IMG/VR virus record: IMGVR_UViG_3300030616_000016
Coordinates: 70,561 to 134,560 of that record
DNA from: a virus
Strand: one strand, 5' to 3'
DNA length: 64,000 nucleotides
Shown here: one piece after another, positions 878 through 56,099 of the stretch
How positions within the stretch are numbered: the stretch's first letter is position 1
Layout of the letters: every line of letters begins with the position of its first letter
Notes under the pieces: model-generated
Told to the model about the DNA's origin: nothing
The model's database searches: none
Seen by the model: the letters and a program-made list of their open reading frames with translations, nothing else
Position numbers and translations under genes: made by a program

Positions 878-2026
878 TTAGAACGAGTCAGCGCTTTCCT
901 TTTCTCTAACTGCTCTTTTTATTTGACTACTTAGTCTTGCGTGTGATTGCTTTTCTTTTGCTATGTCTTCTAATATTTCTATATCTTTACTGCTTAACAA
1001 CTTTCTTACTCTGATAATATCAAGGTGAGCAGCATATGATAGAGTTGCAAACAATGTTTCCAACTCCTTTTTATCACATTCATAATTCATGACTTTATGG
1101 ATCCACCCTTTATATTGCTTATATTTTTTGGATCCTATTCCACTAATTCTTCTTGCCATTGTTCTACGACTTATGTCAACTCCAAATACAACACCCAATG
1201 CACTTATTCTATTTATACCGCTTAACATAACTTTTGACTTATGTTTATTAAATCTCATTCCTTCTACTGCTACGGCCTTATTTGCGCACTTGAAAATATC
1301 ATTTATCCATTCTTTCCAGAATCTTTTAGATATGTAAGGCATAGAGCTACTTAGTTGTATGTCGTCAGCATATCTTGAATATCTGATCCTTCCATATGGC
1401 CAACCCATGCTTGACATTGTTATATCAAACTTTCTCATACATAGATTTGATATTACAGGACTTGATGGAGCACCTTGTGGTAATCCATTTGTCATTGAAA
1501 CAAGAGGTATTAATGGTATCTTATATTTTCTGCAGCATGTATCTACAGTATGTAATGATATAAGCATCTTTCTAATATGTTTTGCTTTAATAGATGGAAA
1601 GAAGTTCTTAATATCCATACTAATCATTATTCTAGCTCCATCATGTATCGACTGTAATTTGTTAATTGCAGTTTGGAAGCGTCTAGAACGTCTTAGTATT
1701 CTTCTAAAAGATTCTTGTGTTGTAAACAGCGGTTTTGGACTATATGCTAAGCTATGTCCATTTCTGTCATACTTTTGCAATAGCCATGAGACATATCTTT
1801 GTGCCGTTTTTAAGTCTTCGTCTGGCTCATGTAAATGCCTGATGCCACCTGATCTTTTTCTTATCATGTGGTGTGTATATCTTGAGTCTCTATCGTTTGA
1901 GTTTTGTTGTAAGTCTTCAAACAATTGCTGAATTGTAATACCAGATGGCAAGACTAGACTTAGAAAATTGTCAGGAGTTATATCATGAAGTCTCAGTTTC
2001 TTCTTTATCTGATTCTGTTCCATCAT
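878..2026 (-). CDS. Reverse transcriptase, retron/Abi-type (bacterial group-II-related RT)
   Basis: SGGIRHLHEPDEDLKTAQ; MDIKNFFPSI; GLPQGAPSSPVISNL; YSRYADDIQL (YADD catalytic box). The NFFPSI and LPQGAPxSPxxSN pattern is typical of retron-like RTs. The DGR-type I/LGxxxSQ motif is absent. Confidence 0.8.
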   Translation of the reverse strand: MMEQNQIKKKLRLHDITPDNFLSLVLPSGITIQQLFEDLQQNSNDRDSRYTHHMIRKRSGGIRHLHEPDEDLKTAQRYVSWLLQKYDRNGHSLAYSPKPLFTTQESFRRILRRSRRFQTAINKLQSIHDGARIMISMDIKNFFPSIKAKHIRKMLISLHTVDTCCRKYKIPLIPLVSMTNGLPQGAPSSPVISNLCMRKFDITMSSMGWPYGRIRYSRYADDIQLSSSMPYISKRFWKEWINDIFKCANKAVAVEGMRFNKHKSKVMLSGINRISALGVVFGVDISRRTMARRISGIGSKKYKQYKGWIHKVMNYECDKKELETLFATLSYAAHLDIIRVRKLLSSKDIEILEDIAKEKQSHARLSSQIKRAVREKESADSF

Positions 2027-3107
2027 CTCCGCCTTCCGATTCCGTATTGTCAGATATTAATTTGGTTATATCATTGTTTGCTGCAAATTCATATAGTGCT
2101 ATTATTCCTTGCACGCTTTCTTCGCCTATGTAGTAGTATCCACCACGCTTGGTGATTTTACCATCTACAATCATTTGATCTACTAAAAATCTTTCTTCAC
2201 TAAACCCATGATTAAAGATGAATGGATATTTTACTTCGGCTCCCTCCGGCATAGTACCAGACTGTCTAGTCTTATTGATTTTCATGTAATGCATGAAGCC
2301 AATAATTTTCTCTTTCTTCTTTCCATCTTCTTCTACAATGGCAGCTGGAGCTTCGCTTTTGCTACCTCTACGAGTCATCAGCCTTACGTGTGTAAAATGC
2401 TTAACCGCATTTCCTCCCTTAACGAGAGTTAGGTCACCATATCCACCAATATTGGTGTATATTTGACCAATCATTATGATTGTTGTGTTTGTCTTTGCTG
2501 CAGGACCACAAGCAAGTCTTAGGAACTGGCTCATTTTTCTTTGAAGAACACCGATGGTATCATCGTTTAGGCTACGGTTAGTACCGGTTTTACTTTCGAG
2601 TTCTGCGCGTGGAAGCAGACCGCCAATTGAATCAATAACTACGATGTCTACTAAATTCTCTCTCATAATGTCGAGACATTTATCTAGCATGTTCTCCATC
2701 GTATCTTTCTCAATTATAAAGAGCTCATCTGTATTGACTCCTTGTACTTTTAACCACTCTTTATCCAATGCTTCTTCTGCATCAACCCAGCATGCAATAC
2801 CATGGTTTTTCTGAACTTCTGCTACACATCTTGCACATGCAGTGCCTTTAGCTGTCTGTTCTGGTCCGGCGATTGTAACAATTTTACCTCTAGGAAAACC
2901 TCCGCCTAAATAGTCATCCCAGCCTTTAATGCCGGTTGATATTCTACCGTAATCCTCTAGTCCAAAATGTACAATTTGATTTTCATCATCGATGTCTTTG
3001 TTAATAGAAGTCGCTACTCTTTTTAGACGAGCCATCTTCTCTGCTTTTATATCTTGTGGAGATACAATCTTTTCTTCACTAGTATCTTTGCTTTTTCTCT
3101 TAGCCAT
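1983..3107 (-). CDS. recA: RecA-family recombinase
   Basis: Collinear with RecA: GGGFPRGKIVTIAGPEQTAKGT..., CWVDAEEALD, VVIDSIGGLLPRAELE, GGNAVKHFTHVRL. The 3' end overlaps the RT start by 44 nt. Confidence 0.85.
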   Translation of the reverse strand: MAKRKSKDTSEEKIVSPQDIKAEKMARLKRVATSINKDIDDENQIVHFGLEDYGRISTGIKGWDDYLGGGFPRGKIVTIAGPEQTAKGTACARCVAEVQKNHGIACWVDAEEALDKEWLKVQGVNTDELFIIEKDTMENMLDKCLDIMRENLVDIVVIDSIGGLLPRAELESKTGTNRSLNDDTIGVLQRKMSQFLRLACGPAAKTNTTIIMIGQIYTNIGGYGDLTLVKGGNAVKHFTHVRLMTRRGSKSEAPAAIVEEDGKKKEKIIGFMHYMKINKTRQSGTMPEGAEVKYPFIFNHGFSEERFLVDQMIVDGKITKRGGYYYIGEESVQGIIALYEFAANNDITKLISDNTESEGGDDGTESDKEETETS

Positions 3108-4584: not shown

Positions 4585-5764
4585 TATTTGCTCCTACAAA
4601 AAATCCTTCTCTCGTGTTCGATGAGTCTGATTGCTCACCGTGTTGTTCTTCTACTTTCCATAGTACTATGTTATTCTCTTCATGCTTAAGTATTTTAAGC
4701 TTGATGGTATTTGTTGCACAGCATTTAATCTGTTCTGCAAACTGTTTGATCGGCAGTAATATAGAGAAATCTTCTTCTGTTTCAGTTGTACAATTTAAGA
4801 TAATATTTGTACTGCCTTCCTCGCCATTAATATTTATTCTTATCCTTTTAACATTGTCATCGCTACCTTCTTCACCTGGAATAACAATAAAGTTAGCTAA
4901 TATTAGGCTTGGATCTTTTAGTATAAACCCTGTGAGATTAATACATTCTTCTCTATTAATAATGAAGGACGCCATTTCTATAGACTGTTCTTCTATTAAA
5001 GAAACACTATTCCATTCCGGTACAGCTTGATCAATATTGCGTTTCATACACTCAATGTTAATATACCATCTAGTGTCTGCATCAAAATGCGTGAGTCTTA
5101 TAAAGTTTAAATTATCAAATACAATAAAATTAAAGCTTGGTGAATGATTTATAATACTGCTCACGTTTGATAATACATCTCTTGTAAGTATAGATGGATT
5201 GTTTATGTCACTTAGGTCTTGTGATCTAATAATACTACTTTGAATTCTATCAATACAATACATTTTTGAGTTATCAATTGTAATTATATCGCCTAGCTGG
5301 TTAAATTCAAGCTTTGTTTTTGCCATAGCTTTAATATATTGTGGTGAAAATATTATTTTCGGTAATCCAATAGCATTAGGTGTAGCACTAAATTCATCTA
5401 TTCCGTTAGTTCCTTCTTCACATAATCTAAAGTCTCTGTTGATGTTGCCGCCGTTAATACTAATAAATCTATTATCATAGCTTATATGTATGACATCATC
5501 ACATGCAGAAATAAAATCAAGTAGCTTTTTGCAGTCATATTTAGTAATGACATTAGACTCAAGCTGTTCTTCTAGAGCATTAGCTGCCATAAATTTACCT
5601 GCTTGAGATCTTAGGCACATCATAAAGATTGAGTGACTTGTAACAAAATTGTTATCGTCATTCCAGAATCCAAAATATATGTCTGATGATTGAGCTATTT
5701 TAGTGGCATTTTGAAGTAGCTCAATCAAACGTGATTTATTAATTTGCATCTCTTCTCCCATCAA
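4529..5764 (-). CDS. Hypothetical protein, weak DnaN/sliding-clamp-like pattern
   Basis: 411-aa ORF with three roughly equal segments and clamp-like strings (ISINGGNINRDFRL; IRININGEEGSTNIILN). Pattern-level impression only. Confidence 0.5.
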   Translation of the reverse strand: MMGEEMQINKSRLIELLQNATKIAQSSDIYFGFWNDDNNFVTSHSIFMMCLRSQAGKFMAANALEEQLESNVITKYDCKKLLDFISACDDVIHISYDNRFISINGGNINRDFRLCEEGTNGIDEFSATPNAIGLPKIIFSPQYIKAMAKTKLEFNQLGDIITIDNSKMYCIDRIQSSIIRSQDLSDINNPSILTRDVLSNVSSIINHSPSFNFIVFDNLNFIRLTHFDADTRWYINIECMKRNIDQAVPEWNSVSLIEEQSIEMASFIINREECINLTGFILKDPSLILANFIVIPGEEGSDDNVKRIRININGEEGSTNIILNCTTETEEDFSILLPIKQFAEQIKCCATNTIKLKILKHEENNIVLWKVEEQHGEQSDSSNTREGFFVGANNDNTEVQSRNDSSEGDQD

Positions 5765-6218
5765 TAGTTGCTCTTTTTAATGCTTCGTCTAGTTTATTAA
5801 CTAGCTGACCAGCGCTATACGAAATTCTATTAATCTTATTATATCCTGCTATTGCTTCGACATGTGCAATATACATATCTTTAGTATTCACACGTGCTTG
5901 TCTTAATGCTTCATCTCCTGTATAGTTCTTGTTAGTTGCTTCATTCTTTGTGCCTCTTAATTCGTTATATTCCTCATCTCTAGCAATTTCTCGCTCATAG
6001 TCTGCTTGTTTCTCAGCGCCTATTAATTCTCCAACCATTGGCGAGATGCTTACTAGCAATGCAGATAGGTGTAGAAGGTCATTTTGCATATCATAGTAGT
6101 TATCCCAAGTGTTTGGTTCTCCGCCAAACTCTTCTGGTGCATACTTTTGGGAGATTCTCATAATCTCCCTTATTTCCAGCTCGATGCTTCTTCTACCTTC
6201 TTCTGTTACTTCAATCAT
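5739..6218 (-). CDS. Hypothetical protein
   Basis: Co-directional 159-aa ORF with no motif recognised. Confidence 0.5.
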   Translation of the reverse strand: MIEVTEEGRRSIELEIREIMRISQKYAPEEFGGEPNTWDNYYDMQNDLLHLSALLVSISPMVGELIGAEKQADYEREIARDEEYNELRGTKNEATNKNYTGDEALRQARVNTKDMYIAHVEAIAGYNKINRISYSAGQLVNKLDEALKRATIDGRRDAN

Positions 6219-6231
6219 AATTTACACCGCC

Positions 6232-6777
6232 TTAGACTGTTGTGAAATAGAACCTATGTGACATAAGCTCGCAATCTCCGCCACAATACGGGCAGGCAAT
6301 AGTTAATGCAACCATATCTTGTTCACTATCTGATTCAACATCATCGTGAATCAGATCACAATCTTCACATATATATAATTCATTCTTGTCAGATGCATAC
6401 ATGGTAACGATGTCGCTTAAGAAATCAGATATGAATAGTTCTAGAGACACTTTATTTTCTAGAAGACCTAAAGCATAGTCTTCTGCATCTATGGGAGATA
6501 ATGTACTTGCTTTCACAAACTTAGTCATTTTGTCTATGTCTGACTTCCCATCATTTATAATATATATAAGAGCATTGTCTTTATCAATGTGTAGCATGCT
6601 CATTCCATGTTCAGCATTTGTCGACTTTGATTCACTTATTAAGTCTTCCCACATATAGGCTAGTGCAGCTGGATGTATCATCAATTCTTTAGCTATATTT
6701 ATCAATGAAGCTTTGAATTGATCTTTCATCACATCCGAATTGACTAACGCTTTTGGTAAAATGTCTGTGTCTTTCAT
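6232..6777 (-). CDS. Hypothetical protein with C-terminal CxxC...CPYCGG zinc-binding motif (start uncertain)
   Basis: CEDCDLIH...ACPYCGGDCE at the C-terminus. The 5' part overlaps ORF 6689-7069. Confidence 0.45.
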   Translation of the reverse strand: MKDTDILPKALVNSDVMKDQFKASLINIAKELMIHPAALAYMWEDLISESKSTNAEHGMSMLHIDKDNALIYIINDGKSDIDKMTKFVKASTLSPIDAEDYALGLLENKVSLELFISDFLSDIVTMYASDKNELYICEDCDLIHDDVESDSEQDMVALTIACPYCGGDCELMSHRFYFTTV

Positions 6778-7069
6778 TTTTATGTATCCATCTGTAGAAG
6801 GTTCTATCGTTAGTCCATATAAACATTAGTTTGTGTGTATATGGTATTCTTTCTTTATAAAGATCACGAAGTATCTGTCTTAGCTCTCCTGATTCCTTAC
6901 CAGTATTATGTATTATAAGAAGTTCTGTTCTTGTATACAAAGTCTTCGCATAGAATATTTGAAGCCAATCTTTGTTTAAAATAGTATGCCATGTAGACTT
7001 AGCATTCTCAATTAGTTGCTCATCATAGTTGAATAGACTAAGAGATAACAACATTTTCTGGTATAACAT
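6689..7069 (-). CDS. Hypothetical protein
   Basis: Co-directional 126-aa ORF. Confidence 0.4.
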   Translation of the reverse strand: MLYQKMLLSLSLFNYDEQLIENAKSTWHTILNKDWLQIFYAKTLYTRTELLIIHNTGKESGELRQILRDLYKERIPYTHKLMFIWTNDRTFYRWIHKNERHRHFTKSVSQFGCDERSIQSFIDKYS

Positions 7070-7475
7070 GATCAGGTACCAATGTTACTGTTTCATAATC
7101 ACTCTCTATATACCCATAGATAATAGATTTAGTATTCATATCAATTGGCATATCTTGGTTGACTTCACATTTAACATCATGTATTTTGCCTTCTTGTATG
7201 ACACCACAAGTTGAAAACATATTGATGAAGCAACGCTTGATTGTTGTTGAAATACGATCAACAATAATGTTATTCTTAAATACTTTTGCATCACAACAAA
7301 CAAAAGTATTTTTAGCAACGTTATCAATAGATGACTTTATTATAACGGGCACGATTGAAACATGGTCTTTACCATCTTTTACATACTCTTGATATATATT
7401 AAGAAACGTATGTTCCTTGTATATACATTTAGTTATAATATAGCCACCTATGATAGCGCTGATATTTTCACTCAC
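7038..7475 (-). CDS. Hypothetical protein
   Basis: Co-directional 145-aa ORF. Confidence 0.45.
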   Translation of the reverse strand: MSENISAIIGGYIITKCIYKEHTFLNIYQEYVKDGKDHVSIVPVIIKSSIDNVAKNTFVCCDAKVFKNNIIVDRISTTIKRCFINMFSTCGVIQEGKIHDVKCEVNQDMPIDMNTKSIIYGYIESDYETVTLVPDHVIPENVVIS

Positions 7476-7477
7476 AC

Positions 7478-8476
7478 TTATTCTCCTTGATTGTCTTGTG
7501 CACTTACACGAAACTCAATGTTCTCTGATGCATCCCTAATAGCATTGATCATCTTATTGATGCCTTTGTCCGTGGCTTCCAATACATTATCATCAGCTTC
7601 TGGACAAAGCTTCGTGATTTTGTAGTCACAGAAGTGAGGAGTAAGTACACATGTACGAGAAGGGCTATCGCTATTTAGTATATTTGTTAGAGCTTCGCTA
7701 TCAACTGATGAAGTGTTAAGACCAGTAAAGAAATCATTGTTAAATTTAAGGAAGGCAACAACAGTAAAATTATTTCTTCCACTAGTTTTTCTGCTGATTT
7801 GCTCGCTCTTATATACTTCTGTCAAGATTCTAAATCCCTTGTAATAGCGGACATAGCCTTTATAGAAGTCTTCTGCAGTGATATATGCAAGCACAACGGT
7901 TCTTGGATCAGGATCATTTTTGGAGAAAGACTCACTGATCTCAAGCTCTTTAGTATTAGCACGAACCATGTCTATATATTCTTTTAATTTCTGACGCTTA
8001 AGCCTAGCAATTCTACGCTGTTCAATAATGTTAGAGATACTTCCAATGGCTTCATCAAGTACTCTAACGTTACGAATCGCAGACATAAGATCATATAGAG
8101 AGTTCTTATATATAACCGCAAAGCTCTCCAGTCTTTCAAGAGCAGCTTTAGCAACTGCTTCAGCATAACTTTGGTCGTCTATCATATTATCCATGATAGA
8201 ATCGACCTCTTTTTTTACTAGCTCCTCAGAACTGTGACAATATTCTGGTATAGTCTCTGAAATAGAATAGCCTATTGCATTTGCTAGTTCTGATGGTGTC
8301 ATATTGATTATTCTGCTGATGTTTCTTAATGTATCTCCATTAGCAACTAACCTTGGCAAAGGATTGTTGAAGTTAGGTGTATAGGAGCCTTTAACAATAA
8401 CATCAGGGATCATGATACTTAAATTTTCTGTAAGAAAATTGCGTATCTTCTCTCTTTCTGTTTTAGGTGTAGACAT
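7478..8476 (-). CDS. Hypothetical protein with HTH-like segment
   Basis: DTLRNISRIINMTPSELANAIGYS resembles an XRE-type HTH. Lies immediately downstream of the JAB gene. Confidence 0.5.
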   Translation of the reverse strand: MSTPKTEREKIRNFLTENLSIMIPDVIVKGSYTPNFNNPLPRLVANGDTLRNISRIINMTPSELANAIGYSISETIPEYCHSSEELVKKEVDSIMDNMIDDQSYAEAVAKAALERLESFAVIYKNSLYDLMSAIRNVRVLDEAIGSISNIIEQRRIARLKRQKLKEYIDMVRANTKELEISESFSKNDPDPRTVVLAYITAEDFYKGYVRYYKGFRILTEVYKSEQISRKTSGRNNFTVVAFLKFNNDFFTGLNTSSVDSEALTNILNSDSPSRTCVLTPHFCDYKITKLCPEADDNVLEATDKGINKMINAIRDASENIEFRVSAQDNQGE

Positions 8477-8492
8477 TAATTAACTCCGCTTT

Positions 8493-9485
8493 CTAGACTT
8501 TGTTGAAGTCTTTAATTACATGACTATGACATCTAGGACATTCCAGATTATTTTCATCATTAATTACAAACACATTATTACATGCAGGACATGTTATTCC
8601 TTCCTCTTCATCTGCATCTATAATAAGAGGATCAGTAATATGGTTATCAATTGGATCATCGATAGGATCGCCATATCCAGCCCAATTACGAATGTTTTGA
8701 GAAGTTCTGTGATGTCTGTTACCAAACCTAGGATTGTAATAGCTACCACCTATTGGAAACATAGTTGATTTTCCTTCAACTACTTCATCTTTGTCTTCAT
8801 CATATGAATGTGTAGTCATAGATTTTACAAGCTCATTTATCTCTTCTCTACATTTCTTATATGTTTCTGTGTAATCTGCAGTTACAACATTGAGATCAAT
8901 ATTGTCAATGACAAGCTTGGGGTTTTTCTGAACATATTTGACTAAGATGTTACCAGATTTATTTCCTACAAGCATTACTGCCCATCCATGTTGCTGAAGC
9001 ATCTCATCTGCAGCATCTACATCCTGTCCACTCCAGAATGTAGGCATGTTTACATGAGAATGCCAATGGAAATTCATGCGGCTGTATATTGATTTGCCAA
9101 TGTCTTGTTTAATAGTCAGCATATCTTCTTCTGATATATCATCAACAGATATATCTTTAAACTCCTCAGAGTCTTCAATATATTTGTTGATGTAGTTATC
9201 GATAATATCATGCTCTCCCTTAATGAGAGGAAGCTCAATTCTCTTACATCTGTCTTTATTACACAAACGAAAGTAGCCTGAGCTTGCTACTTGTTTAACG
9301 ATGAATACATTATCAATGATAAGATTACCATTCTTGTCTTGGATGATGGTACCAAGTCCACCACATTCGGTTGAACAAGCATTGATCCATCCTCTGATCT
9401 TTTCTCTTAGGATTGCTGGCATGTATATATTGATGCTTTCTTTAGTTTCTAAAGCATCTTTCTCGGATTCGTTCTTGATTTGCAT
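8493..9485 (-). CDS. JAB/MPN (JAMM) metallopeptidase with C-terminal zinc ribbon
   Basis: Exact JAMM signature HSHVNMPTFWSGQD (H-x-H-x7-S-x2-D) preceded by the conserved Glu in STECGGLG. C-terminal CPACN...CPRCH. RBS AAAGGAAAG lies before the ATG. Confidence 0.8.
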   Translation of the reverse strand: MQIKNESEKDALETKESINIYMPAILREKIRGWINACSTECGGLGTIIQDKNGNLIIDNVFIVKQVASSGYFRLCNKDRCKRIELPLIKGEHDIIDNYINKYIEDSEEFKDISVDDISEEDMLTIKQDIGKSIYSRMNFHWHSHVNMPTFWSGQDVDAADEMLQQHGWAVMLVGNKSGNILVKYVQKNPKLVIDNIDLNVVTADYTETYKKCREEINELVKSMTTHSYDEDKDEVVEGKSTMFPIGGSYYNPRFGNRHHRTSQNIRNWAGYGDPIDDPIDNHITDPLIIDADEEEGITCPACNNVFVINDENNLECPRCHSHVIKDFNKV

Positions 9486-9511: not shown

Positions 9512-10549
9512 TTATGATGCTGATGTATCTACGCGTCCATCAGGCAATAGTTTCAAGTCTTCTTTTTTTGCATATGCTTTCCAGTGGTCAATATCTGCAT
9601 ATGTATCGCCAGAATTACAACTTTCAAGATATTCTTTCAGAATGGCAAATATTACTCCATAACTACCACATTTAAGATACTGAGGAATGGCTCTGCTAAT
9701 ATTCCCCAAGCATGGACCACCATCAACATTAACATGAGGATGTGGATTTGAAGTTTCTTTACCTGGAGGTTCAATAACTGATGTAATGCGTATTCCTGTA
9801 CTATTATATGGAATACTAACAAGATATGTTCCCATATAATAGTACATGTCATTTTCTTTTATCCAGATAGGTGGTGTAAGCCCCTTAATTGAGTCTGGAG
9901 CGAACTCAATGTTAGCATATGCACCTGATTCATATAATTTCATTACTCCAGTAACTGCTTTGTCAATCATCATTTCTTTCTCTTCACCTTCAGGTATGTT
10001 TTCTATATCTTTTAACCTTTCCTTGGCTATTTCAAGGCGTTTCATAAGAGTAAGTTGATGTGTTTGACAAGCTTTCATTTGGTTTTCTGTGAGCCTCAAA
10101 GATGTGAGAAGACTAGTTTTCTCACTATCTACATTACCAAGAAGCTGACGATAAATACATTCCCGTACATCGTTTCTCTTGTTTGCAATGTCTCGTTGAG
10201 ATCTACGACTAGAGCCACTACCTCTTCTAGAAAGAATTATTCGCGCGTCTCTAAAACTTTTAAATGCGTTTGAGATTACTGCGTCAAATATATCTTCTCT
10301 AGAAGCAAGTATTTGTAAACAGTTTGGTGAATGGGTAATAGTTTTTCTTGACTCGTCAACAAAAGGTTCCCATACATTAGATATGTTAGGAATATCTTCA
10401 ATTGGTGTAGGATTTATAATGCAAAGAACCTCTGAAGTAAAATCCTGGAATCTATCACTAATGATAATGGTTTTTGTCAGAGAGATCTCAAATGTTCTGA
10501 AAACAGCAAATAAATCTGAGCTGTTTGCAACTCCCATATTATCAATCAT
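9512..10549 (-). CDS. E2 (UBC-fold)-like ubiquitin-conjugating enzyme with N-terminal coiled-coil extension
   Basis: The C-terminal 110 aa contain NPHPHVNVDGGPCLGNI, which mirrors the UBC HPN...G-x-x-CL active-site motif. It is preceded by a beta-meander-like segment (YYMGTYLVSIPY). Confidence 0.6.
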   Translation of the reverse strand: MIDNMGVANSSDLFAVFRTFEISLTKTIIISDRFQDFTSEVLCIINPTPIEDIPNISNVWEPFVDESRKTITHSPNCLQILASREDIFDAVISNAFKSFRDARIILSRRGSGSSRRSQRDIANKRNDVRECIYRQLLGNVDSEKTSLLTSLRLTENQMKACQTHQLTLMKRLEIAKERLKDIENIPEGEEKEMMIDKAVTGVMKLYESGAYANIEFAPDSIKGLTPPIWIKENDMYYYMGTYLVSIPYNSTGIRITSVIEPPGKETSNPHPHVNVDGGPCLGNISRAIPQYLKCGSYGVIFAILKEYLESCNSGDTYADIDHWKAYAKKEDLKLLPDGRVDTSAS

Positions 10550-10587
10550 ATTTGAAAGCCTTTCTGTGTTTTATGATTAGGGTAAAG

Positions 10588-10634
10588 AAAAGTCAAGTAC
10601 TATAGTAAGTGTTTACTATAATACTTGACTTTTT
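10588..10634 (-). terminator. Long hairpin after the Ubl gene
   Basis: aaaagtcaagtactatagtaa-gtgt-ttactataatacttgactttt gives a stem of about 20 bp. On the minus strand it is followed by TTTTCTTT. Confidence 0.5.
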
Positions 10635-10684
10635 TGTGGCCACATAACTACACAAAAGTGTAGCTACATTTTTAGGGCACTTTA

Positions 10685-10900
10685 CTACTTGCCGCCATCA
10701 ACCTTCTGCTGCAGAACGACGATGTCGCCGTTATCCAGGACTGTGTCGAGGTCAGCAGCGTCGCCGTTTACACGGACTTTACGACTGCCCAGCTCAACTC
10801 CAGCTGTTGCAAGAAGGTTCGCGACGGTTGCGTTTGCCGGAGTGAGGCTGTAAGTCTTAACTTCGCCTTCACCCTGAGCCAGCTGTACACATGTAACCAT
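10685..10900 (-). CDS. Ubiquitin-like beta-grasp protein (ThiS/MoaD-like) ending ...VDGG-K
   Basis: MVTCVQLAQGEGEVKTYSL...VRVNGDAADLDTVLDNGDIVVLQQKVDGGK. A consensus AAGGAG lies 7 nt before this ATG, so the track ORF start at 10936 is probably too long. The di-glycine is followed by one Lys. About 55% GC by hand count. Confidence 0.75.
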   Translation of the reverse strand: MVTCVQLAQGEGEVKTYSLTPANATVANLLATAGVELGSRKVRVNGDAADLDTVLDNGDIVVLQQKVDGGK

Positions 10901-10939
10901 TGCAGAACTCCTTAAATAGGGTTCATGTTTTGTCAACGT

Positions 10940-11608
10940 TCAACTACAAGGCCACACTAGCCTGTAGTCCGCTGACCCTTTTAGAAACATTAATTCATCC
11001 ATAGATAAATTATGTTCATTTGCAACTATAAATCCTATGTTTCCGTAGTCATCGAATCTCATAAGAGATATAAAGTTTTCTATTCCGAACCTATTTTTTG
11101 ATTCGTTTCCACAATAAACGCAATTTGGAAATCCGTATAGCATTTTAGAACCACATAGACCACACTCTTCTTTAGACTCCAGTTTGTAAACTCTTAGTTC
11201 TTTTAGTATTCTTTCATTAATCATAAACGATTGTTGCCCAAGTTTTACCTCTGTACGTTCATGCAAATCTACAAGAGCATCAAATGGAATTCGATTGATC
11301 CAGTAATTTAATGGTCTTAAGCTAGCTGTTCTATTTCTATATATAAGTAAGTTAACTAGTATTTTGTCTGCACATATGGGAGAGCCTTCTTTAAAAATAT
11401 ATCCCATAATTTTATTAGTTCCAATAACATTTCTAGAGCTTCCAATTTCTGGCACTGCTAATGTTAAGCGATTTGGGCTTAGGACTATATCCCATTTCTT
11501 TGATAAATCTTGAGGCTCGTCTGGGTTGTGAGGAGTTATATGCGCCAGCTTTTCTTCTATAGCTCCACGAAATATTGAGCTTTTTCTTCGCTCTAGACAT
11601 TGCGACAT
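10940..11608 (-). CDS. Zinc-ribbon protein (start 11608 or 11407)
   Basis: CGLCGSKMLYGFPNCVYCGN. The ATG at 11608 has a strong AAAGGAGA RBS but lies inside the UvrD 3' end. An alternative ATG at 11407 has no RBS. Confidence 0.5.
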   Translation of the reverse strand: MSQCLERRKSSIFRGAIEEKLAHITPHNPDEPQDLSKKWDIVLSPNRLTLAVPEIGSSRNVIGTNKIMGYIFKEGSPICADKILVNLLIYRNRTASLRPLNYWINRIPFDALVDLHERTEVKLGQQSFMINERILKELRVYKLESKEECGLCGSKMLYGFPNCVYCGNESKNRFGIENFISLMRFDDYGNIGFIVANEHNLSMDELMFLKGSADYRLVWPCS

Positions 11609-13179: not shown

Positions 13180-13389
13180 TTAGTCTGTTGTAGTGTTAAG
13201 GTGGTATTCAATCTCATCAGTAATGGATTTGGTGTCTTTATGCAGCGTTTGTTCTCCCTTAATACTGAGTTTGTACTTATTTCTTTTCTTTGGATCTGCA
13301 TATTTTGTTATAGAGATGCTTATGCGTTCATCTTTCTTTTGTGCTTGTTCTTGCGGCTGTTGTGTTTGTTCTGTTACATCACCTGGCAT
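13180..13389 (-). CDS. Small Lys/Gln-rich hypothetical protein
   Basis: MPGDVTEQTQQPQEQAQKK... with GGAG before the ATG at 13389. Confidence 0.4.
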   Translation of the reverse strand: MPGDVTEQTQQPQEQAQKKDERISISITKYADPKKRNKYKLSIKGEQTLHKDTKSITDEIEYHLNTTTD

Positions 13390-14087
13390 TTTAATATATC
13401 TCCTAATTTGTCTAGGTCTGATAAAAGATCCCATTGTTTAAACATATGAAGGTCATTTATTAGTATTTTTTTACCACAGTAATAACATTCTGTAAAGTAT
13501 TCTGTGTGTGGACCAATTAATTTGTAGCGCAATATACCATCATTAAATAAATTATATGAAGCACATGAAGGACATAGGTATGGAATTAGTGCTAACATTG
13601 TTGATAGTATATTACCACGTTTTATACGAGCTGGATTTGATTTGTATATTGTTGTAAAACCAACTACTGAATTTAATAATGATCGAGACATAGCCCCAGA
13701 TGAATTTCTTCTTAATTCTTCTAGTATTGCTGTTTTTGAGTTTATTACTATGCGTTGACATGCAATACTAATACGTTGAACAGAATCATAATGCATATAA
13801 TCTGGATATATAGGTGGTATCTTTATCTCTGACATAGTTCCAATCATTTGTTCAATGATAGGTGTAACTGACCAGTTATACAAATCTCTTCCTACTAAAG
13901 AGCATCTTGTTATAGCACATGGAGGAACATATACATGTTTTTGATAACCGGGCGACAAATTATTAGTCATAGCTTTTGTAATGTCAGCATATGATACAGT
14001 AGGCACTGTCCATTTAGGGAGTATAGTGTTTTTAAGTTCTAGTGTGGAACAGATTGCTTTATTAAGACAGTTTATACATGGATGCAT
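13374..14087 (-). CDS. Cys-rich protein (multiple CxxC pairs)
   Basis: MHPCINCLNKAIC..., CPSCASYN...CYYCGKK. Lies between the E1 and Ubl genes. Confidence 0.5.
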   Translation of the reverse strand: MHPCINCLNKAICSTLELKNTILPKWTVPTVSYADITKAMTNNLSPGYQKHVYVPPCAITRCSLVGRDLYNWSVTPIIEQMIGTMSEIKIPPIYPDYMHYDSVQRISIACQRIVINSKTAILEELRRNSSGAMSRSLLNSVVGFTTIYKSNPARIKRGNILSTMLALIPYLCPSCASYNLFNDGILRYKLIGPHTEYFTECYYCGKKILINDLHMFKQWDLLSDLDKLGDILKCQVM

Positions 14088-14107: not shown

Positions 14108-14575
14108 TTATTTAGATGTCTCGTATATTGCTTTGATGTCTATGTTTGATGAGTCTTCCAATAGTAATTTTACTAGTCCTATTTTATTCTTGCTGTTAAA
14201 TGAAGACATGATTGCTTTAAGTATATTATCATTGTATGCGCCACAAAATTGGCATATAATCGAGCTTCCCAGACACATACAATTTGAACATCTTTCTGTA
14301 AGTTTAGATGTAATACTTATATAATCGCGTGATATTGTTACTGGCAAGCAACCACAACTATCTATTGCCAAAATATCATAAGTATCGTTGTCTATGTATC
14401 CAACTATTATTTTTTTTGCACGCATAAATTCTTTATATATAAGGAGATTATAAGCATTATGTTCTACTTCAAATGGTATTAATATACTATCACTGTCTTG
14501 TAAGGGTTTTGTAGACCCTTCAGAAAGTGTAAGCCCAGTGAATAATATACGATCAAAACGACACGATTTACTCAT
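14108..14575 (-). CDS. Cys-rich protein, translationally coupled to E1
   Basis: CSNCMCLGSSIICQFCGAYN and SCGCLP. Its ATG overlaps the E1 stop (ATGA). Confidence 0.5.
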   Translation of the reverse strand: MSKSCRFDRILFTGLTLSEGSTKPLQDSDSILIPFEVEHNAYNLLIYKEFMRAKKIIVGYIDNDTYDILAIDSCGCLPVTISRDYISITSKLTERCSNCMCLGSSIICQFCGAYNDNILKAIMSSFNSKNKIGLVKLLLEDSSNIDIKAIYETSK

Positions 14576-15309
14576 GGTCTTTTATCCTTAAAGATATCCC
14601 ATGTCTTGAAATTAATATCTATTCCAAATGGAATTGTTTCTTCTGTTCCATTTGCAATATGATAAATACATGAGGATATCCAGCTTGCTGTCCACATTAC
14701 TGGAAATATAATGCTCTTTTCTGTACACTTGATATCAGGCATGTCTTCATCATTATCAAGATTGTTTTCCTCGAACAGCTGAACTTCATCTGGCATGTAA
14801 GGAAGTACTGCGTATGCTTCGCATTGAGTTGCTCCAATTCTTGAGTCTATAAACATGGAAATACGAGCCATATTTTGACAACTATATTCAAACAGGAGTT
14901 GTCTTGCCTTCATGTTATCGACGGCAGAAATAATAATGTCAGCTTTTCTAGCGTATTTGTCAACATCGTCTACGCTTTCAAGTCTGTCTTTATGAAATTC
15001 CCACTCCCAGTTGGGCTTTGAATATCCGCTTATAATCTTTTCAAGTTCAGCTACTTTTAGGGCTCCAGTTTGCCGCCAATTATAAATTTGGTTTGCCTGA
15101 TTATGGACTTCAATTGAATCAAAGTCTACAATAGTACATTTGGTGATACCCATTTTTGCCATAGCAACTGCAGCAAATGAACCTATGCTTCCAGCTCCAA
15201 GCATAAATACATTAAGCTTCATCAGCTTATCAATGTCAACTAGATCAAAGTGACCTTTATAAATTTCTTCATTCTCATTGAATACAAATTCTTCTTCCTG
15301 GTTAGACAT
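14572..15309 (-). CDS. E1-like adenylyltransferase (ThiF/MoeB/HesA family)
   Basis: LNVFMLGAGSIGSFAAVAMAKMGITKCTIVDFDSIEVHNQANQ (Rossmann GxGxxG and D-x-D...N-x-x-Q). AVDNMKARQLL. The ATG at 15309 follows AAAGGA; the track ORF starts at a GTG at 15336. Confidence 0.8.
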   Translation of the reverse strand: MSNQEEEFVFNENEEIYKGHFDLVDIDKLMKLNVFMLGAGSIGSFAAVAMAKMGITKCTIVDFDSIEVHNQANQIYNWRQTGALKVAELEKIISGYSKPNWEWEFHKDRLESVDDVDKYARKADIIISAVDNMKARQLLFEYSCQNMARISMFIDSRIGATQCEAYAVLPYMPDEVQLFEENNLDNDEDMPDIKCTEKSIIFPVMWTASWISSCIYHIANGTEETIPFGIDINFKTWDIFKDKRP

Positions 15310-15328: not shown

Positions 15329-16042
15329 CTACTCACCGAATATTGATTGCATCGAAAAGTATGTATAACATACTAGCTCATATTCCTGAATCCATTCTTC
15401 TCTTTTTGTTCCGCTTTTATCTCTTATGATGTAGCTCGGATGATAAAGACAGATTATTGGAATATCATTATTGTTATTGTTATAGTAAAATGTTTCTCCA
15501 ACTAAATCTCCCATTTTAGTTGTAGTATTTACATCTTTTATTAATGCTATAGCTGATTGTTTGCCAAGGCAAACAATCAACCATGGATCCAGTATTTCTA
15601 ATTCTTTGTGAAGAAATGGAATACATTCTTCAACACAGTCTGTGGGTGGAGGACAAGTTTTCTCACCTTGCCTGAATGGTTTGCATCTGGCTATGTTTGT
15701 TAAGTAGCATTCTGATGCTGGCAATTCGGCGGCTTCTGTCATCTCATTGAGTTCTTGTCCAGCTGGACCACAAAATGGGATGCCTTGGCTATCTTCCTGG
15801 GCCCCAGGAGATTCGCCGATAAAAACTATGTTGTATCGGTAGCTTCCTCTGCTAAAAACAGGACTAGATGCTATATTTCTTAGTCTGCATTTTGTGCAGT
15901 CTAGTACGTCCTGTTCTAAGTCTTGGAGCTGACTTTCTTTACTTATATTTTGAGTATCTCCAGACATTTTGCGTAAATCCACTAGGGGTTTTGAGTCTAA
16001 TGCGCTCTTTGTCAATACTGACAATCTCTGAGCCTGGTACAA
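15329..16042 (-). CDS. Uracil-DNA glycosylase, family 4 (start uncertain)
   Basis: CTKCRL..., IVFIGESPGAQEDSQGIPFCGPAGQELN, LYHPSYIIR. These are the family-4 UDG motifs. Confidence 0.8.
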   Translation of the reverse strand: MYQAQRLSVLTKSALDSKPLVDLRKMSGDTQNISKESQLQDLEQDVLDCTKCRLRNIASSPVFSRGSYRYNIVFIGESPGAQEDSQGIPFCGPAGQELNEMTEAAELPASECYLTNIARCKPFRQGEKTCPPPTDCVEECIPFLHKELEILDPWLIVCLGKQSAIALIKDVNTTTKMGDLVGETFYYNNNNNDIPIICLYHPSYIIRDKSGTKREEWIQEYELVCYTYFSMQSIFGE

Positions 16043-21865: not shown

Positions 21866-23164
21866 GTGACATTACCCCACGCCTAAAGGCGGGGGCTTCC
21901 TAATTCATCGAAAATTGCGTTCCATACTGGCTACGTCTTACATCTTCTCCAAAGGCTTTAGGTTCCCCTTGCCCAGGGGTACAAAATGCAAAATTCAAAA
22001 TATTACTAGATGCAAGGGCATCTCTATCGTGTTTGGCACCACAAGTGCAAGTCCAATATCTGTCACTTAGCTTAAGATTATTATTTATAGCGCCGCACTG
22101 GTTACACATCTTGCTGGATGGTTCAAATCTTCCTATAGTCAAAACATGCTTTCCATACCAACCTGCCTTATACTCAAGAAAGGTACGAAAAGTATACCAT
22201 CCAACATCAGAGATAGCCTTGGCCAAACAATGATTCTTCACCATTCCAGAAACGTTTAAATCCTCAAGACACACTGCTTGGTTCTCGTCAATGAGCCTTT
22301 TGGACAATTTATGCAAAAAATCTTTACGTTGATTAGAAATCTTCTCATGTATCAACGCTACCTTCCTACGAGCCTTGTTTCTATTTGAAGAACCTTTCTT
22401 CTTCTTTGATAATTGTTTTTGCTTTCTTGCCAATCTTCTTTCAAGTTTCTTTAGGTATCTTGGATTATCTATTTTCTCGCCTGTTGATAGTGTTGCAAAA
22501 TGTTTTAATCCAACGTCAACACCTACACTATTATCTCGTTCAGGATTACATTTGATAGGTAATTCTTCTCCATTGTCAACCAAAATAGAAGCAAAGTATT
22601 TCCCAGAAGGAGCCATGAATATAGTTACAGTTTTAATATTGCCTTCAAATTGTCTATGGAATTTGCATTTGATGCCATCACGGAATTTCATTACATATAG
22701 CCTATTATTATCAAAATCCACATTACTTCCTTGTGGAAATTGACAAGATTGCTTTTTGAATTTCTTCTTAAATTGAGGATATCTTGCCTGTTTCTTAAAA
22801 AACCGCCGGAAAGCATTGTCAAGGTTTCTAAAGGCCATTTGCAAAGATTGACTATTAACTTCCTTCAGCCAACCATGCTCAGATTTCATATGTTTCAATT
22901 GCTTTATCAAATCAAAACAGGAAGGAGATTTCCCCGTTTTTTGATAAGACTCTGTTTTCTTTTGGAGTCCCAAATTGTATATGAACCGTACACAACCAAA
23001 ATGCTTCACAAGAAGCTCCTGTTGTTTTTTGTTGGGGTATATTTTGTATTTATATGCTCGTATCATTATATTTATAGTATAGCACAGGTTTCTGTAAATG
23101 TCAAGAGAAAAACGCATTCTTATATCCCCATGGCTAAAGCCAGGGGTCTTACGAATGCACCTTG
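21866..23164 (-). mobile_element. IS200/IS605-family element carrying tnpB only (IS1341-like), 1.3 kb
   Basis: The ends are defined by comparison with copies at 33637-33883 and 62734-62781. The left end (LE) starts CAAGGTGCATTCGTAAGACCCCTGGCTTTAGCCATGGGG immediately after TTAT. The right end (RE) finishes CCCCCGCCTTTAGGCGTGGGGTAATGTCAC. Both ends have subterminal imperfect hairpins. No tnpA is present. Confidence 0.8.
21900..23066 (-). CDS. tnpB: TnpB (OrfB) RNA-guided-nuclease-family protein
   Basis: MIRAYKYKIYPNKKQQELL, GVDVGLKHFATLSTGEKIDNP (RuvC-I Asp), VCLEDLNV (RuvC-II Glu), CNQCG...CTCG (zinc finger), HDRDALASSNI (RuvC-III Asp). Confidence 0.9.
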   Translation of the reverse strand: MIRAYKYKIYPNKKQQELLVKHFGCVRFIYNLGLQKKTESYQKTGKSPSCFDLIKQLKHMKSEHGWLKEVNSQSLQMAFRNLDNAFRRFFKKQARYPQFKKKFKKQSCQFPQGSNVDFDNNRLYVMKFRDGIKCKFHRQFEGNIKTVTIFMAPSGKYFASILVDNGEELPIKCNPERDNSVGVDVGLKHFATLSTGEKIDNPRYLKKLERRLARKQKQLSKKKKGSSNRNKARRKVALIHEKISNQRKDFLHKLSKRLIDENQAVCLEDLNVSGMVKNHCLAKAISDVGWYTFRTFLEYKAGWYGKHVLTIGRFEPSSKMCNQCGAINNNLKLSDRYWTCTCGAKHDRDALASSNILNFAFCTPGQGEPKAFGEDVRRSQYGTQFSMN

Positions 23165-37417: not shown

Positions 37418-37525
37418 TTGGCAACTCCTTACGTCTTTTTTGAGGTAGGAAGGGAATAAAAAGAGCTGGAATACTTACCAATAAAGGTAAATATTCCAGC
37501 TCAATCCATGTTTGGAGACATTGGA

Positions 37526-54756: not shown

Positions 54757-55101
54757 CTAAATACTTGTCTCACATCCGCAGTTCTTACAAACACCTTTTT
54801 GTATTTCATCGCTGCCACAGAATTCACAAATTGCTAATTTCGCATATCTAATCGATTCGGATATTAAAAAATATTTTGAACCATTTGATACTATAAAGCA
54901 ATCGGTAGGAAATAGTGCATCAACAGACTGTATGGTACAAATTTTATCTCTTATTAAGTCTTCCACAAGTACATCAAATAGTTCTGTGCTTCTAATTCCT
55001 TTTGCATCAGTAAGTGTTGTTTTCATAGGATATGAACGAGGTATATCGAATACGATTTTTAGCTTATGTTTTATGGCATGCATTGCTTCTTCTATGGTCA
55101 T
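54757..55101 (-). CDS. Zinc-ribbon paralogue family member
   Basis: AAAGGA RBS before MTIEEAMHAIKHK. C-terminal AICEFCGSDEIQKGVCKNCGCETS. The track ORF is longer. Confidence 0.6.
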   Translation of the reverse strand: MTIEEAMHAIKHKLKIVFDIPRSYPMKTTLTDAKGIRSTELFDVLVEDLIRDKICTIQSVDALFPTDCFIVSNGSKYFLISESIRYAKLAICEFCGSDEIQKGVCKNCGCETSI

Positions 55102-55124
55102 AATATTATCCTTTGGAAATGATA

Positions 55125-56038: not shown

Positions 56039-56099
56039 TATTATATCTCCTATTATTTGCTATGCATTTCTTGTCAAAAGTTGCCAAAAACGTGTGCGT

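Follow-up and report, generated by a model that had tools for sequence, protein, structure and literature searches.

Organisation of the Locus

The window (the whole 64-kb stretch of DNA that was analysed) belongs to a contig of a phiKZ-like jumbo phage of about 232 kb (the parent contig, k141_1275754 in ENA ERZ27252234, is 231,593 bp long), on which a fragment of a phiKZ-type RNA polymerase is present. The minus strand of the window contains a short gene (positions 10685–10900, 71 codons and a stop, MVTCVQ...QQKVDGGK) for the predicted precursor of a SAMP2/ThiS-type beta-grasp ubiquitin-like modifier (Ubl), and gene calling on the parent contig gave the identical 71-aa protein. Along this strand, the genes are arranged in the following order: a ThiF-type E1-like adenylating enzyme of 245–254 aa (14572–15309), which lies directly downstream of a UDG gene; five ORFs occupying 3.7 kb; Ubl; a 345-aa protein, the candidate E2-like enzyme, directly 3' of Ubl (9512–10549); and a 330-aa JAB/JAMM metallopeptidase (8493–9485), which was already placed two genes downstream of Ubl in a sequence-only reading of this DNA. 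The module sits in the replication region among DNA-metabolism genes, and the linkage of UDG and E1 is recurrent.

The neighbour of Ubl on its upstream side is a conserved ORF of 155 aa (10940–11407, minus strand), whose product has a CxxC...CxxC zinc ribbon. Gene calling likewise gave this ORF on the parent contig; its homologues lie in the corresponding slot of the related loci L002 and L010, and the alignment of the relatives shows conservation of its C-terminus. Since the gap between this ORF and the ATG of Ubl is only 39 nt, the two genes are probably co-transcribed.

No near-identical DNA was found among 50,697 GenBank phages, and tblastn searches of the same phages with Ubl, the 345-aa protein, and a triple-Ubl relative gave no match. 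Pattern scans for close relatives gave no match in the viral contigs of IMG/VR or in 185,579 species genomes; in JGI metagenomes, they recovered two loci only, both duplicates of known members.

The Ubiquitin-like Protein and Its C-Terminal Tail

As a single sequence, Ubl remains below the Pfam threshold (ThiS, E = 0.0016, 19.4 bits versus 22.5; SAMP2, E = 0.031). Over positions 5–71, a profile of 21 family members matched both Pyrococcus furiosus SAMP2 in the PDB (5lda_B, E = 1.1e-8, full length, with the terminal GG aligned) and PF1061 (1.7e-8), and its similarity to the tail assembly protein TAPI (8iyk_I) was negligible (E = 0.37). Judged by these homologies, Ubl is a SAMP2/ThiS-type ubiquitin-like protein, for which a beta-grasp fold may be inferred. 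Proteins of this family, for which 87 cluster representatives were found, are either single-domain or composed of two to four tandem units; many members are such tandem poly-Ubl proteins, including the product of the triple-Ubl gene of L006. The Ubl gene is conserved and under purifying selection, with dN of 0.22 and dS of 0.86 in the comparison with L001.

The 71-aa form, which the sequence-only reading had preferred to an 83-aa one, proved to be the real one: the extension is not conserved, gene callers and homologues use the same Met as the 71-aa form, and the ribosome-binding site in front of it is invariant in four relatives. The protein ends in QQKVDGGK, where G69–G70 are encoded at 10691–10696, the cap residue Lys71 at 10688–10690, and the stop at 10685–10687 (minus strand), so the di-glycine is indeed covered by a single Lys, as had been pointed out earlier. 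Three syntenic relatives, from genomes of 30–52% GC, retain QKV[DA]GG, and the tails following this invariant GG are hypervariable in both length and sequence (K, KIS, NV, and TAGALAA). Conservation of GG in front of differing tails suggests that the tail belongs to a precursor and is trimmed off. Among the 21 family members, G69 is the sole invariant column, while at position 70 the wider family has G, N, or A; the frequent replacement of the second Gly by Asn or Ala makes the exact mature end uncertain. The one-residue cap is ordinary and matches known JAB-processed precursors. Some BilA proteins carry 1–9 residues past the reactive Gly, which are removed by BilC (PMC10557695; bioRxiv 10.1101/2023.09.04.556158), and in E. 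aridi BilC trims a single Ala, with BilA being cut at Gly97|Ala98 (PMC10557695).

Enzymes Encoded in the Module

The JAB protein was recognised by the Prok-JAB (E = 0.0018) and PADLOC JAB (E = 6e-4) profiles and has a C-terminal CxxC...CxxC zinc ribbon; a search of the PDB with its own profile revealed nothing significant. The JAMM motif E...HxHx7Sx2D (E40, H142-x-H144, S152, and D155) is intact and invariant in three JAB homologues. This protein is a candidate enzyme for both maturation and deconjugation of Ubl.

The E1-like enzyme consists of a single ThiF domain (Pfam ThiF, E = 1.4e-21, residues 33–231). In the PDB, it is matched best by the minimal E1 UBA5 (2e-7), and in NCBIfam by ThiF and MoeB; read by eye, it does not have the Arg of the usual SNLxRQ motif. 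It is 68% identical to the L001 homologue found at the same position, and in L006 and L015 the ThiF gene directly adjoins Ubl.

Only three homologues of the 345-aa protein are present among 5.8 billion proteins. It has a coiled-coil middle part and a motif-bearing C-terminal domain; no Pfam match was obtained for the protein or, at E ≤ 10, for the isolated C-terminal domain, and a profile search of the PDB gave nothing significant. The C-terminal domain carries the invariant motif YPHPHVxxxGxPCLGNIS with the candidate catalytic residue Cys280, and the arrangement H270-P-H272-x7-C280 with G277, invariant in three homologues, matches H75-P-N77-x7-C85 with G82 of UBE2D2. Alignment with an E2 profile by hhalign placed HPH/C280/NPxD on HPN/C85/PNPxDP (probability 34%, E = 4e-4); the AF2 model of the protein is poor (pLDDT 52), and the best Foldseek match is the Knl1 RWD domain (E = 0.11). 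These similarities weakly suggest an E2-like enzyme.

Base Composition and Codon Usage of the Ubl Gene

The Ubl gene has 55.1% G+C, compared with a mean of 36.1% for the 64-kb window, and its flanks at 10300–10599 and 10900–11399 have 32–35%, in line with the earlier hand count of about 55% between AT-rich flanks. In a sliding profile of 216 nt (standard deviation 4.4 points), the maximum of the whole 64 kb, 56.0%, falls at the Ubl gene, and the second-highest peak, 50.5%, is located at an IS/TnpB remnant. Among 96 ORFs, Ubl ranks first in GC (0.551, next 0.451), GC1 (0.708, next 0.606), and GC3 (0.556, next 0.457), and its GC2 is unremarkable (0.389). The sequence-only reading had allowed for many genes being just as GC-rich; no other ORF is, and Ubl is the lone outlier of the profile.

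The GC-richness could be a passive by-product of a protein rich in Gly, Ala, Val, and Asp, with no selection on codons. The high GC1 is consistent with such an origin, and the amino-acid composition alone lifts the expected GC from 36% to 44.5%. However, 55.4% is observed, and the GC3 exceeds the expectation from the amino-acid sequence, with 39 of 71 codons ending in G or C versus 19.8 expected (z = 5.2–5.7), as it also does in four other loci (z = 3.1–6.0); furthermore, the synonymous divergence of Ubl is below that of its neighbours. As a full explanation, the by-product origin is therefore contradicted and appears very improbable: amino-acid composition accounts for about 44% of the GC excess and G/C-ending codons for about 56%. 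The contribution of amino-acid composition was a factor absent from the sequence-only reading.

The codons CTG, CGT, AAC, CAG, GGC, and GAC are favoured in Ubl, and TTA, AGA, AAT, and CAA are absent. Its GC3 excess, 0.27, is double the value of the gene in second place, and hence the window shows no general class of highly expressed genes with such codons; across the window ORFs, which do not include the virion genes lying outside it, the strength of the ribosome-binding site did not correlate with GC3 excess (p = 0.38). No tRNA genes are present in the window, and phage tRNAs encoded there therefore cannot explain the codon choice. The likeliest, although unproven, cause of the excess is tuning for high expression, the second explanation offered in the sequence-only reading.

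Ribosome-Binding Site and Hairpins

The ATG of Ubl (10900–10898) is preceded by AAGGAG at 10913–10908 with a 7-nt spacer, ttctgca, just as had been described from the sequence. Together with the preceding T, it makes up the Shine–Dalgarno sequence TAAGGAG (10908–10914, minus strand), a 7-nt match to the anti-Shine–Dalgarno complement; matches of at least 6 nt were found in only 16 of 93 window ORFs. In the alignment, AAGGAG is invariant across all four relatives at a spacing of 7–8 nt. No shared promoter was seen 5' of Ubl in this four-way alignment, and sigma-70 matches in the scan were no commoner than in shuffled sequences; the phage probably has its own RNA polymerase.

Two hairpins are predicted by folding downstream of the stop codon on the same strand. 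The first (10642–10669) has a 12-bp stem and a UUUU loop. The second (10580–10633), a putative intrinsic terminator and/or mRNA stabiliser, contains at 10588–10633 a perfect 21-bp stem with a 4-nt loop (dG −25.3 kcal/mol, z = −9.4, none of 200 shuffles being as good), slightly longer than the stem of about 20 bp estimated earlier; the 3' region as a whole folds with z = −6.6. Besides the hairpin at 10588–10633, the coding strand of the window has only two further terminator-like hairpins that are strong (dG < −20). The 21-bp stem is AT-rich, with 4 G–C pairs, and its 3' arm closes with UUUU, after which CUUU follows; the hairpin is absent from the list produced by a consensus terminator scan. 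In L001, L005, and L010, hairpins with G+C-rich stems and a U-run, unrelated in sequence, occupy the same place after the Ubl stop. A hairpin with a U-run follows the stop in L008 and L009 as well, and in L006 and L015 there is a hairpin with no visible U-run.

One could also suppose that the composition serves a structured RNA or an additional product encoded in antisense, given that the mRNA folds somewhat better than shuffled sequences (z = −2.3) and that a 54-aa antisense ORF is found at 10689–10853. However, antisense ORFs are expected by chance in GC-rich coding sequence, and no part of the window matches an Rfam family. The fold of the four-homologue alignment has few compensatory pairs and a covariation term that is unfavourable (+0.69), and the idea of a conserved RNA structure within the coding region of Ubl was therefore rejected. 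The origin of the GC-rich composition in such a product is extremely unlikely.

Conservation and Age of the GC Excess

Recent horizontal acquisition was one of two explanations offered in the sequence-only reading for the compositional contrast. In this case, the islet would have come from a GC-richer genome and would not yet have been ameliorated. The compositional boundary is sharp at either end of the Ubl gene, and the true foreign elements of the window, the IS/TnpB genes, are likewise GC-enriched. However, four relatives carry a GC-enriched Ubl at the syntenic position although the proteins of their neighbour genes are only 24–70% identical, and the neighbour genes have pS of 0.65–0.78, which corresponds to saturation, versus 0.51 for Ubl at similar dN. 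The GC3 excess was observed in L001 (z = 6.0), L010 (z = 3.1), L005 (z = 4.6), and the triple-Ubl gene of L006 (z = 5.2), and an excess also in L015, L009, and L008; the enrichment is present in distant tandem-Ubl genes of other phages as well. The family member in L014 has no GC excess. Neither a bacterial donor in the pattern scan of 185,579 species genomes nor a homologue in 50,697 GenBank phages was found. Since the relatives all share the GC excess, AAGGAG, and a hairpin with a U-run past the stop codon, while the synonymous sites of the neighbours are saturated, recent horizontal transfer was rejected, and we regard it as a most improbable source of the islet.

The excess of G/C-ending codons persists across genomes of 30–60% GC. 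The GC-richness of Ubl thus appears to be a maintained property, resulting partly from amino-acid composition and partly from selected codon usage. The islet could be a clean natural case of selection on codons and composition persisting against strong mutational bias, and such islets would provide a simple sequence signature for finding genes of this kind in AT-rich phage genomes.

Proposed Function of the Module

We consider it fairly probable that the GC-rich gene encodes a SAMP2/ThiS-type ubiquitin-like modifier of the phage, which is synthesised as a precursor with a short tail, and that the gene is adapted to a high output with a tuning of its own. In the proposed mechanism, the JAB enzyme would remove Lys71 and expose Gly70, E1 would adenylate Gly70, and Ubl, probably after transfer to Cys280 in the 345-aa protein, would be passed on to lysine residues in proteins of the phage or its host, while the JAB enzyme could also undo the conjugation. 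The hairpins, acting as a terminator or stabiliser, together with the codon choice would give a stable, efficiently translated message, and, as a consequence, the modifier may be made in large excess over its own enzymes.

Alternatively, Ubl could be a sulfur carrier similar to ThiS, MoaD, or QbsE, uncapped by JAB and adenylated by E1, whose thiocarboxylate would supply the sulfur when genes of the replication module modify a nucleotide, a tRNA, or a DNA base. The best sequence relatives of Ubl are ThiS, MoaD, and SAMP proteins, those of E1 in NCBIfam are ThiF and MoeB, the module lies among DNA-metabolism genes with recurrent UDG–E1 linkage, and L006 and L015 have E1 (and L006 also JAB) with no E2-like gene. 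Known examples of capped carriers that a JAMM peptidase uncaps are QbsE (GG-CF, with QbsD) and CxnE (GG and 10 aa, with CxnF), which share with Ubl a ThiS/MoaD-like GG followed by extra residues, a clustered JAMM gene, and ThiF-type activation (PMC5925218). In contrast to these systems, no rhodanese, cysteine desulfurase, PP-loop thiolase, or other sulfurtransferase or sulfur-accepting enzyme was found among 18 neighbour proteins compared with Pfam, PHROGs, NCBIfam, and PADLOC, many of the ORFs being without any match. Moreover, the E1 is a bare ThiF domain, and an invariant HPx...Cys protein adjoins Ubl. Poly-Ubl proteins of two to four units, common in the family, fit a ubiquitin-like precursor, and to our knowledge tandem poly-units are unknown for sulfur carriers. 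The poly-Ubl relatives and the E2-like neighbour point to protein conjugation rather than sulfur carriage, and the sulfur-carrier role seems unlikely to us. SAMPs perform both jobs, and the two roles are not mutually exclusive.

Ubl conjugation in prokaryotes has been known so far as a host process, in sulfur transfer, sampylation, and the anti-phage Bil, CBASS, and Bub systems. No description of a phage-encoded Ubl/E1/JAB module was found in the literature searched. We tentatively suggest that the locus represents an undescribed family of virus-encoded Ubl modifiers with their own E1 and JAB, and with a new E2-like enzyme in the clade of this Ubl; their genes lie in replication modules of large phages, jumbo phages among them. 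In that case, phages would run their own protein conjugation, a mirror image of the ubiquitin-like Bil and CBASS defences of their hosts, and the terminator-flanked Ubl genes, rich in GC and C-ending codons, would reflect the need for a stoichiometric modifier. A conserved Ubl/E1/JAB module in jumbo phages, together with the candidate E2, would show that bacterial viruses use Ubl chemistry; its possible roles are the regulation of phage replication or virion proteins and the countering of host defences.

Comparison with Known Systems

The closest solved relative of Ubl is SAMP2 of the archaeal sampylation system (SAMP2/UbaA/JAMM1; 5LDA, Pyrococcus furiosus), which also shares a small single-domain ThiF-type E1. 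In sampylation, the JAMM peptidase processes linear fusions so that the C-terminal Gly becomes free, and it also cleaves off conjugates; HvJAMM1 exposes the C-terminal Gly of SAMP, which is conjugated by the E1 UbaA (PMC4443979). Unlike this system, the module described here is phage-encoded, its Ubl has a C-terminal tail and tandem poly-Ubl relatives, its JAB enzyme has twice the length and carries a zinc ribbon, and a candidate E2-like protein is present, whereas sampylation proceeds with no E2.

The Bil system (BilA, Ubl; BilB, E2; BilC, JAB; BilD, E1) has the same parts list, the E2 being only a candidate here, but the phage proteins showed no detectable similarity in sequence to those of Bil. 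The Bil operon serves the host in defence against phages; here the module resides in a phage and its genes do not form one compact operon, with E1 being five ORFs away from Ubl. The E1 is a bare ThiF of about 250 aa, in contrast to the IAD+AAD+CYS architecture of the Bil E1, and the candidate E2 has a canonical-looking HPx...C motif, while the Bil E2 is of the CEHH type.

Precursors of eukaryotic ubiquitin, NEDD8, and SUMO require a dedicated peptidase before E1 activation. They share with the phage protein a reactive GG under a short variable tail, and the wider Ubl family has tandem head-to-tail poly-Ubl. However, the affinity of the phage protein is to ThiS and SAMP, the peptidase is a JAMM enzyme, and the context is viral and prokaryotic.

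A phage beta-grasp Ubl with a conserved C-terminal Gly and a JAB partner is also found in lambda and T1, as the tail assembly protein I and the JAB-containing protein K (PMC1779556). That pair belongs to the tail module and has no E1, whereas the genes described here are located in the replication region together with an E1.

Composition and Signals of the Ubl Gene

The gene of the 71-aa ubiquitin-like protein (Ubl; 10685–10900, minus strand) has a G+C content of 55.1%, compared with 36.1% for the window and 32–35% for both flanks, in agreement with the GC-rich islet of about 55% proposed in the sequence-only reading. Profiling of the 64 kb in 216-nt sliding windows (mean 36.1%, standard deviation 4.4 points) placed the overall peak of 56.0% on this gene, with a runner-up peak of 50.5%. 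None of the 96 non-overlapping ORFs compared surpasses the Ubl ORF in total GC (0.551; next 0.451), GC1 (0.708; next 0.606), or GC3 (0.556; next 0.457), and its GC2 of 0.389 is ordinary; other genes are not equally GC-rich.

The sequence AAGGAG at 10913–10908 is separated by 7 bases from the ATG at 10900 and, including the preceding T, matches the anti-SD complement over 7 nt, at least 6 matching bases being found in just 16 of 93 ORFs of the window. Downstream of the TAG codon are a 12-bp hairpin (10642–10669) and a perfect 21-bp hairpin (10588–10633; dG −25.3 kcal/mol, z = −9.4), and the whole 3′ region has a folding z of −6.6; in all, the coding strand of the window has only three hairpins of such strength that lead into T-rich sequence. 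The protein ends in VDGGK. The consensus RBS, the stem of about 20 bp after the stop, and the GG-K terminus had all been noted by eye, and these measurements show that every element of that observation is real and well beyond chance; the interpretation attached to it was partly supported. A 54-aa antisense ORF within the gene (10689–10853, plus strand) is most likely a by-product of the few stop codons in GC-rich sequence.

Identity and Translated Form of the Protein

Pfam matches of the 71-aa protein are all sub-threshold (ThiS, E = 0.0016). Searching 1.84 billion cluster representatives exhaustively with HMMER yielded 87 relatives (E ≤ 1e-3), and a profile built from 21 single-domain family members matched SAMP2 of Pyrococcus furiosus (PDB 5LDA chain B) over the full length with E = 1.1e-8, the C-terminal G-G of the family being aligned onto the terminal G-G of SAMP2. 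This match identifies the predicted protein as a SAMP2/ThiS-type beta-grasp ubiquitin-like protein. Its translated form is the 71-aa one and not the 83-aa TTG-initiated ORF considered earlier, since the equivalent Met is the start in all close homologues, AAGGAG at 7–8 nt spacing is invariant across the window and its three syntenic relatives (L001, L005, and L010), and no similarity was found among the upstream in-frame extensions of the relatives.

Genomic Context

The 231.6-kb metagenomic contig from which the window comes (ENA ERZ27252234) is a jumbo phage. Its genes lie almost exclusively on a single strand. They include genes for a RecA-like protein, DEAD-box and UvrD helicases, and UDG, as well as a partial gene (33888–35558) for the beta subunit of a phiKZ-type multisubunit RNA polymerase; the match of this fragment to phrog_3295 assigns the contig to the jumbo phages that encode an RNA polymerase of their own. 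A reverse-transcriptase-like gene (878–2026) adjoins the RecA-like gene (1983–3107) and is kept in L001.

Directly downstream of Ubl lies the gene of a 345-aa protein (9512–10549), followed by that of a 330-aa JAB protein (8493–9485) with a complete JAMM motif (E40, H142-x-H144, S152, D155); three homologues keep this motif and the C-terminal zinc ribbon without change. A single-domain ThiF-type E1 (14572–15309; Pfam 1.4e-21, best PDB match UBA5) is encoded five ORFs upstream of Ubl and adjoins the UDG gene. The gene order UvrD, small zinc-ribbon ORF, Ubl, and 345-aa protein is common to three other phage lineages, L001 (30% GC), L010 (48% GC), and L005 (52% GC; a 1.8-kb contig ending within the 345-aa homologue), and L001 and L010, whose contigs are longer, also have JAB in this arrangement. 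Neighbouring proteins are 24–70% identical between the window and these relatives; Ubl, with 72% identity, is the best conserved protein of the neighbourhood. The ORF just upstream of Ubl (10940–11407) has a CxxC...CxxC ribbon, and zinc ribbons also occur in three small paralogues (see below).

A UDG-superfamily gene is located directly upstream of E1 both in the window (15329–15967) and in L001 (where 5261–6781 is the region concerned). In the cultured Flavobacterium phage FpV4 (L013 1–4618), such a gene lies three genes upstream of a ThiF gene, and the protein encoded before ThiF matches the JAMM motif weakly; crAss-like Bacteroides phages also carry ThiF genes, annotated 'thiamine biosynthesis protein'. 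The linkage of UDG, JAB, and E1 may be recurrent in phage replication modules. Downstream of E1, directly in L001 (ORF 6823–7554) and one ORF further in the window (13374–14087), is the gene of a Cys-rich protein (237 aa in the window, 31% identity) with several CxxC pairs and no family match, which may serve the Ubl system as a RING-like or treble-clef partner.

Origin of the Compositional Excess

With the codon usage of the window, the Ubl amino-acid sequence would have 44.5% GC against the 55.4% observed; thus, about 44% of the excess over 36% results from amino-acid composition, namely Gly, Ala, Val, Asp, and Glu codons, which also account for the GC1 of 0.71, and about 56% from synonymous choice. 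G/C-ending codons number 39 of 71 versus 19.8 expected (z = 5.2): Leu is encoded only by CTG, CTC, or CTT and Arg only by CGT, with AAC used in 4/4, CAG in 4/4, and GGC in 6/8 cases, and NNC in 10/13 against a background of 0.31. Conditioned on amino-acid sequence, GC3 excess was likewise observed in L001 (z = 6.0), L010 (3.1), L005 (4.6), and the triple-Ubl gene of an unrelated phage contig of 56% GC (L006, z = 5.2); by raw GC and GC3, the distant Ubl loci L015, L009, and L008 are also enriched and L014 is not.

The recent horizontal acquisition suggested in the sequence-only reading was rejected. The excess is kept in the relatives, although synonymous sites of neighbouring genes are saturated between the window and L001 (pS 0.65–0.78); Ubl itself has a pS of 0.51 at similar dN. 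Without selection, a foreign composition would have been lost by amelioration long since. A pattern scan of 185,579 species genomes and a search of 50,697 GenBank phages revealed no donor. RNA structure was also discarded as a cause, the four-way alignment fold having an unfavourable covariation term; the Ubl mRNA is just mildly more stable than shuffles.

The other suggestion was expression-driven codon bias. The strong invariant RBS, the hairpin and U-run after the stop (conserved in position, not in sequence, in all four relatives), the C-ending codons, and the reduced synonymous rate fit high output; more distant Ubl relatives have hairpins right after the stop as well. The runner-up in GC3 enrichment (37526–38344, z = 4.2) shares the AAGGAG+7 RBS with Ubl and is followed by another of the three strong terminator-like hairpins (17 bp, 37463–37502); its 272-aa product has no family match, and it is possibly another highly expressed gene. 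However, RBS strength does not correlate with GC3 excess across the window (p = 0.38), the Ubl excess is double that of any other window gene, and no virion genes are recognisable in the window for comparison. Therefore, expression-linked selection is the best available explanation of the GC3 excess, but is not demonstrated. A terminator between Ubl and the candidate E2-like and JAB genes would presumably lead to more modifier than enzyme, which is the expected stoichiometry. Nothing about the cap, RBS, and putative terminator is out of the ordinary, but a compositional islet upheld by selection across phages of 30–60% GC is unusual.

C-Terminal Tail and Predicted Processing

The sequence QKV[DA]GG is kept in all four relatives and is followed by K, KIS, NV, or TAGALAA. 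In the 21-member alignment, G69 is the sole invariant column, with tails of 0–3 residues after position 70. A conserved, presumably reactive Gly after which the residues vary freely is typical of a propeptide, and E1 enzymes require the free carboxylate of a terminal Gly. The predicted removal of the Lys cap by JAB, as the sequence-only reading envisaged, appears well supported by comparison, given the variable tail and known JAMM precedents, and is not novel in kind. BilC cleaves BilA after Gly97, removing the one Ala that follows (PMC10557695), and overhangs of 2–9 residues are present in twelve BilA homologues (bioRxiv 10.1101/2023.09.04.556158). HvJAMM1 releases the C-terminus of SAMP1 when it is part of a linear fusion (PMC4443979), and uncapping of the sulfur carriers QbsE and CxnE by QbsD and CxnF has been proposed (PMC5925218). 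The candidate mature end should be read with the caveat that position 70 is Asn or Ala in many family members and tandem units end in KGN.

Most Ubl relatives consist of 2–4 head-to-tail units of about 68–70 aa (P0003–P0016 and others; L006 2004–2624; L015 1618–2232; L014 312–1220), each ending in KGN, sometimes KGG or KGA, with Asn replacing the second Gly at the junction. The tandem gene directly follows a ThiF gene in L006, L015, and the 187-kb contig carrying P0003; in L006, a JAB-like gene precedes the ThiF gene.

Candidate E2-Like Protein and Proposed Mechanism

Among 5.8 billion proteins, just three homologues of the 345-aa protein were found, and it has no sequence match in Pfam, PHROG, PADLOC, or PDB. 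It carries an invariant YPHPHVxxxGxPCLGNIS motif, in which H-P-H, Gly, and Cys are spaced exactly as in the active-site loop HPN...G..C of UBE2D2. Using hhalign, this motif and the following NPxD were found in register with an E2 profile, with a probability of 9.7% for one manually entered E2 sequence and 34% (E = 4e-4) for four. A low-confidence AF2 model (pLDDT 52) comprises, in this order, a helix, 4–5 strands, a loop, and helices, and its best Foldseek matches are Knl1 RWD domains, which have an E2-like fold (E = 0.11). Together, these data make an E2-like function plausible but unproven.

Most likely, a Ubl-K precursor would be made in excess, Lys71 would be removed by JAB, and Gly70 would be adenylated by E1; lysines of phage or host proteins would then receive Ubl, with Cys280 of the 345-aa protein as the probable intermediate, and JAB could reverse the conjugation. 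The main rival explanation, that Ubl is a sulfur carrier, draws on its affinities to ThiS/MoaD, on the capped sulfur carriers already known, and on the replication-module and UDG context that recurs in FpV4, where ThiF comes after the weak JAMM match. However, no sulfur-relay enzymes were found near Ubl among the 18 neighbouring proteins scanned, and the many tandem poly-Ubl proteins of 2–4 units adjoining ThiF, and in one case JAB, suit a ubiquitin-like precursor better than a sulfur carrier. Since SAMPs act as both protein modifiers and sulfur carriers, the two roles could coexist.

Archaeal SAMP2 is nearest to Ubl in sequence, whereas Bil is nearest to the phage module in parts list but differs from it in how E1 is built, in operon structure, and in genomic setting. 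It is also unusual for a phage to encode Ubl, E1, and JAB together, with a possible new E2 among them, as predicted here; no description of such a module was found in the literature, of which coverage was incomplete, so that an earlier one is possible, or in a survey of 224 jumbo-phage genomes, which mentions ubiquitin only in passing (PMC7824862).

Mobile Elements and Small Paralogues

IS-type elements explain several lesser GC peaks of the window, including the second highest (50.5%, around 56090). They encode a 405-aa TnpB-like protein (21900–23117) and a 335-aa transposase (43010–44017; phrog_4285), and a fragment at 55971–56312 (plus strand) carries a TnpB C-terminal zinc-finger motif. 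Three paralogous small proteins (54757–55230, 55555–55866, and 56325–56756, all on the minus strand) share the C-terminal zinc-ribbon motif C-x-F-C-G-...-C-x-N-C-G-C.
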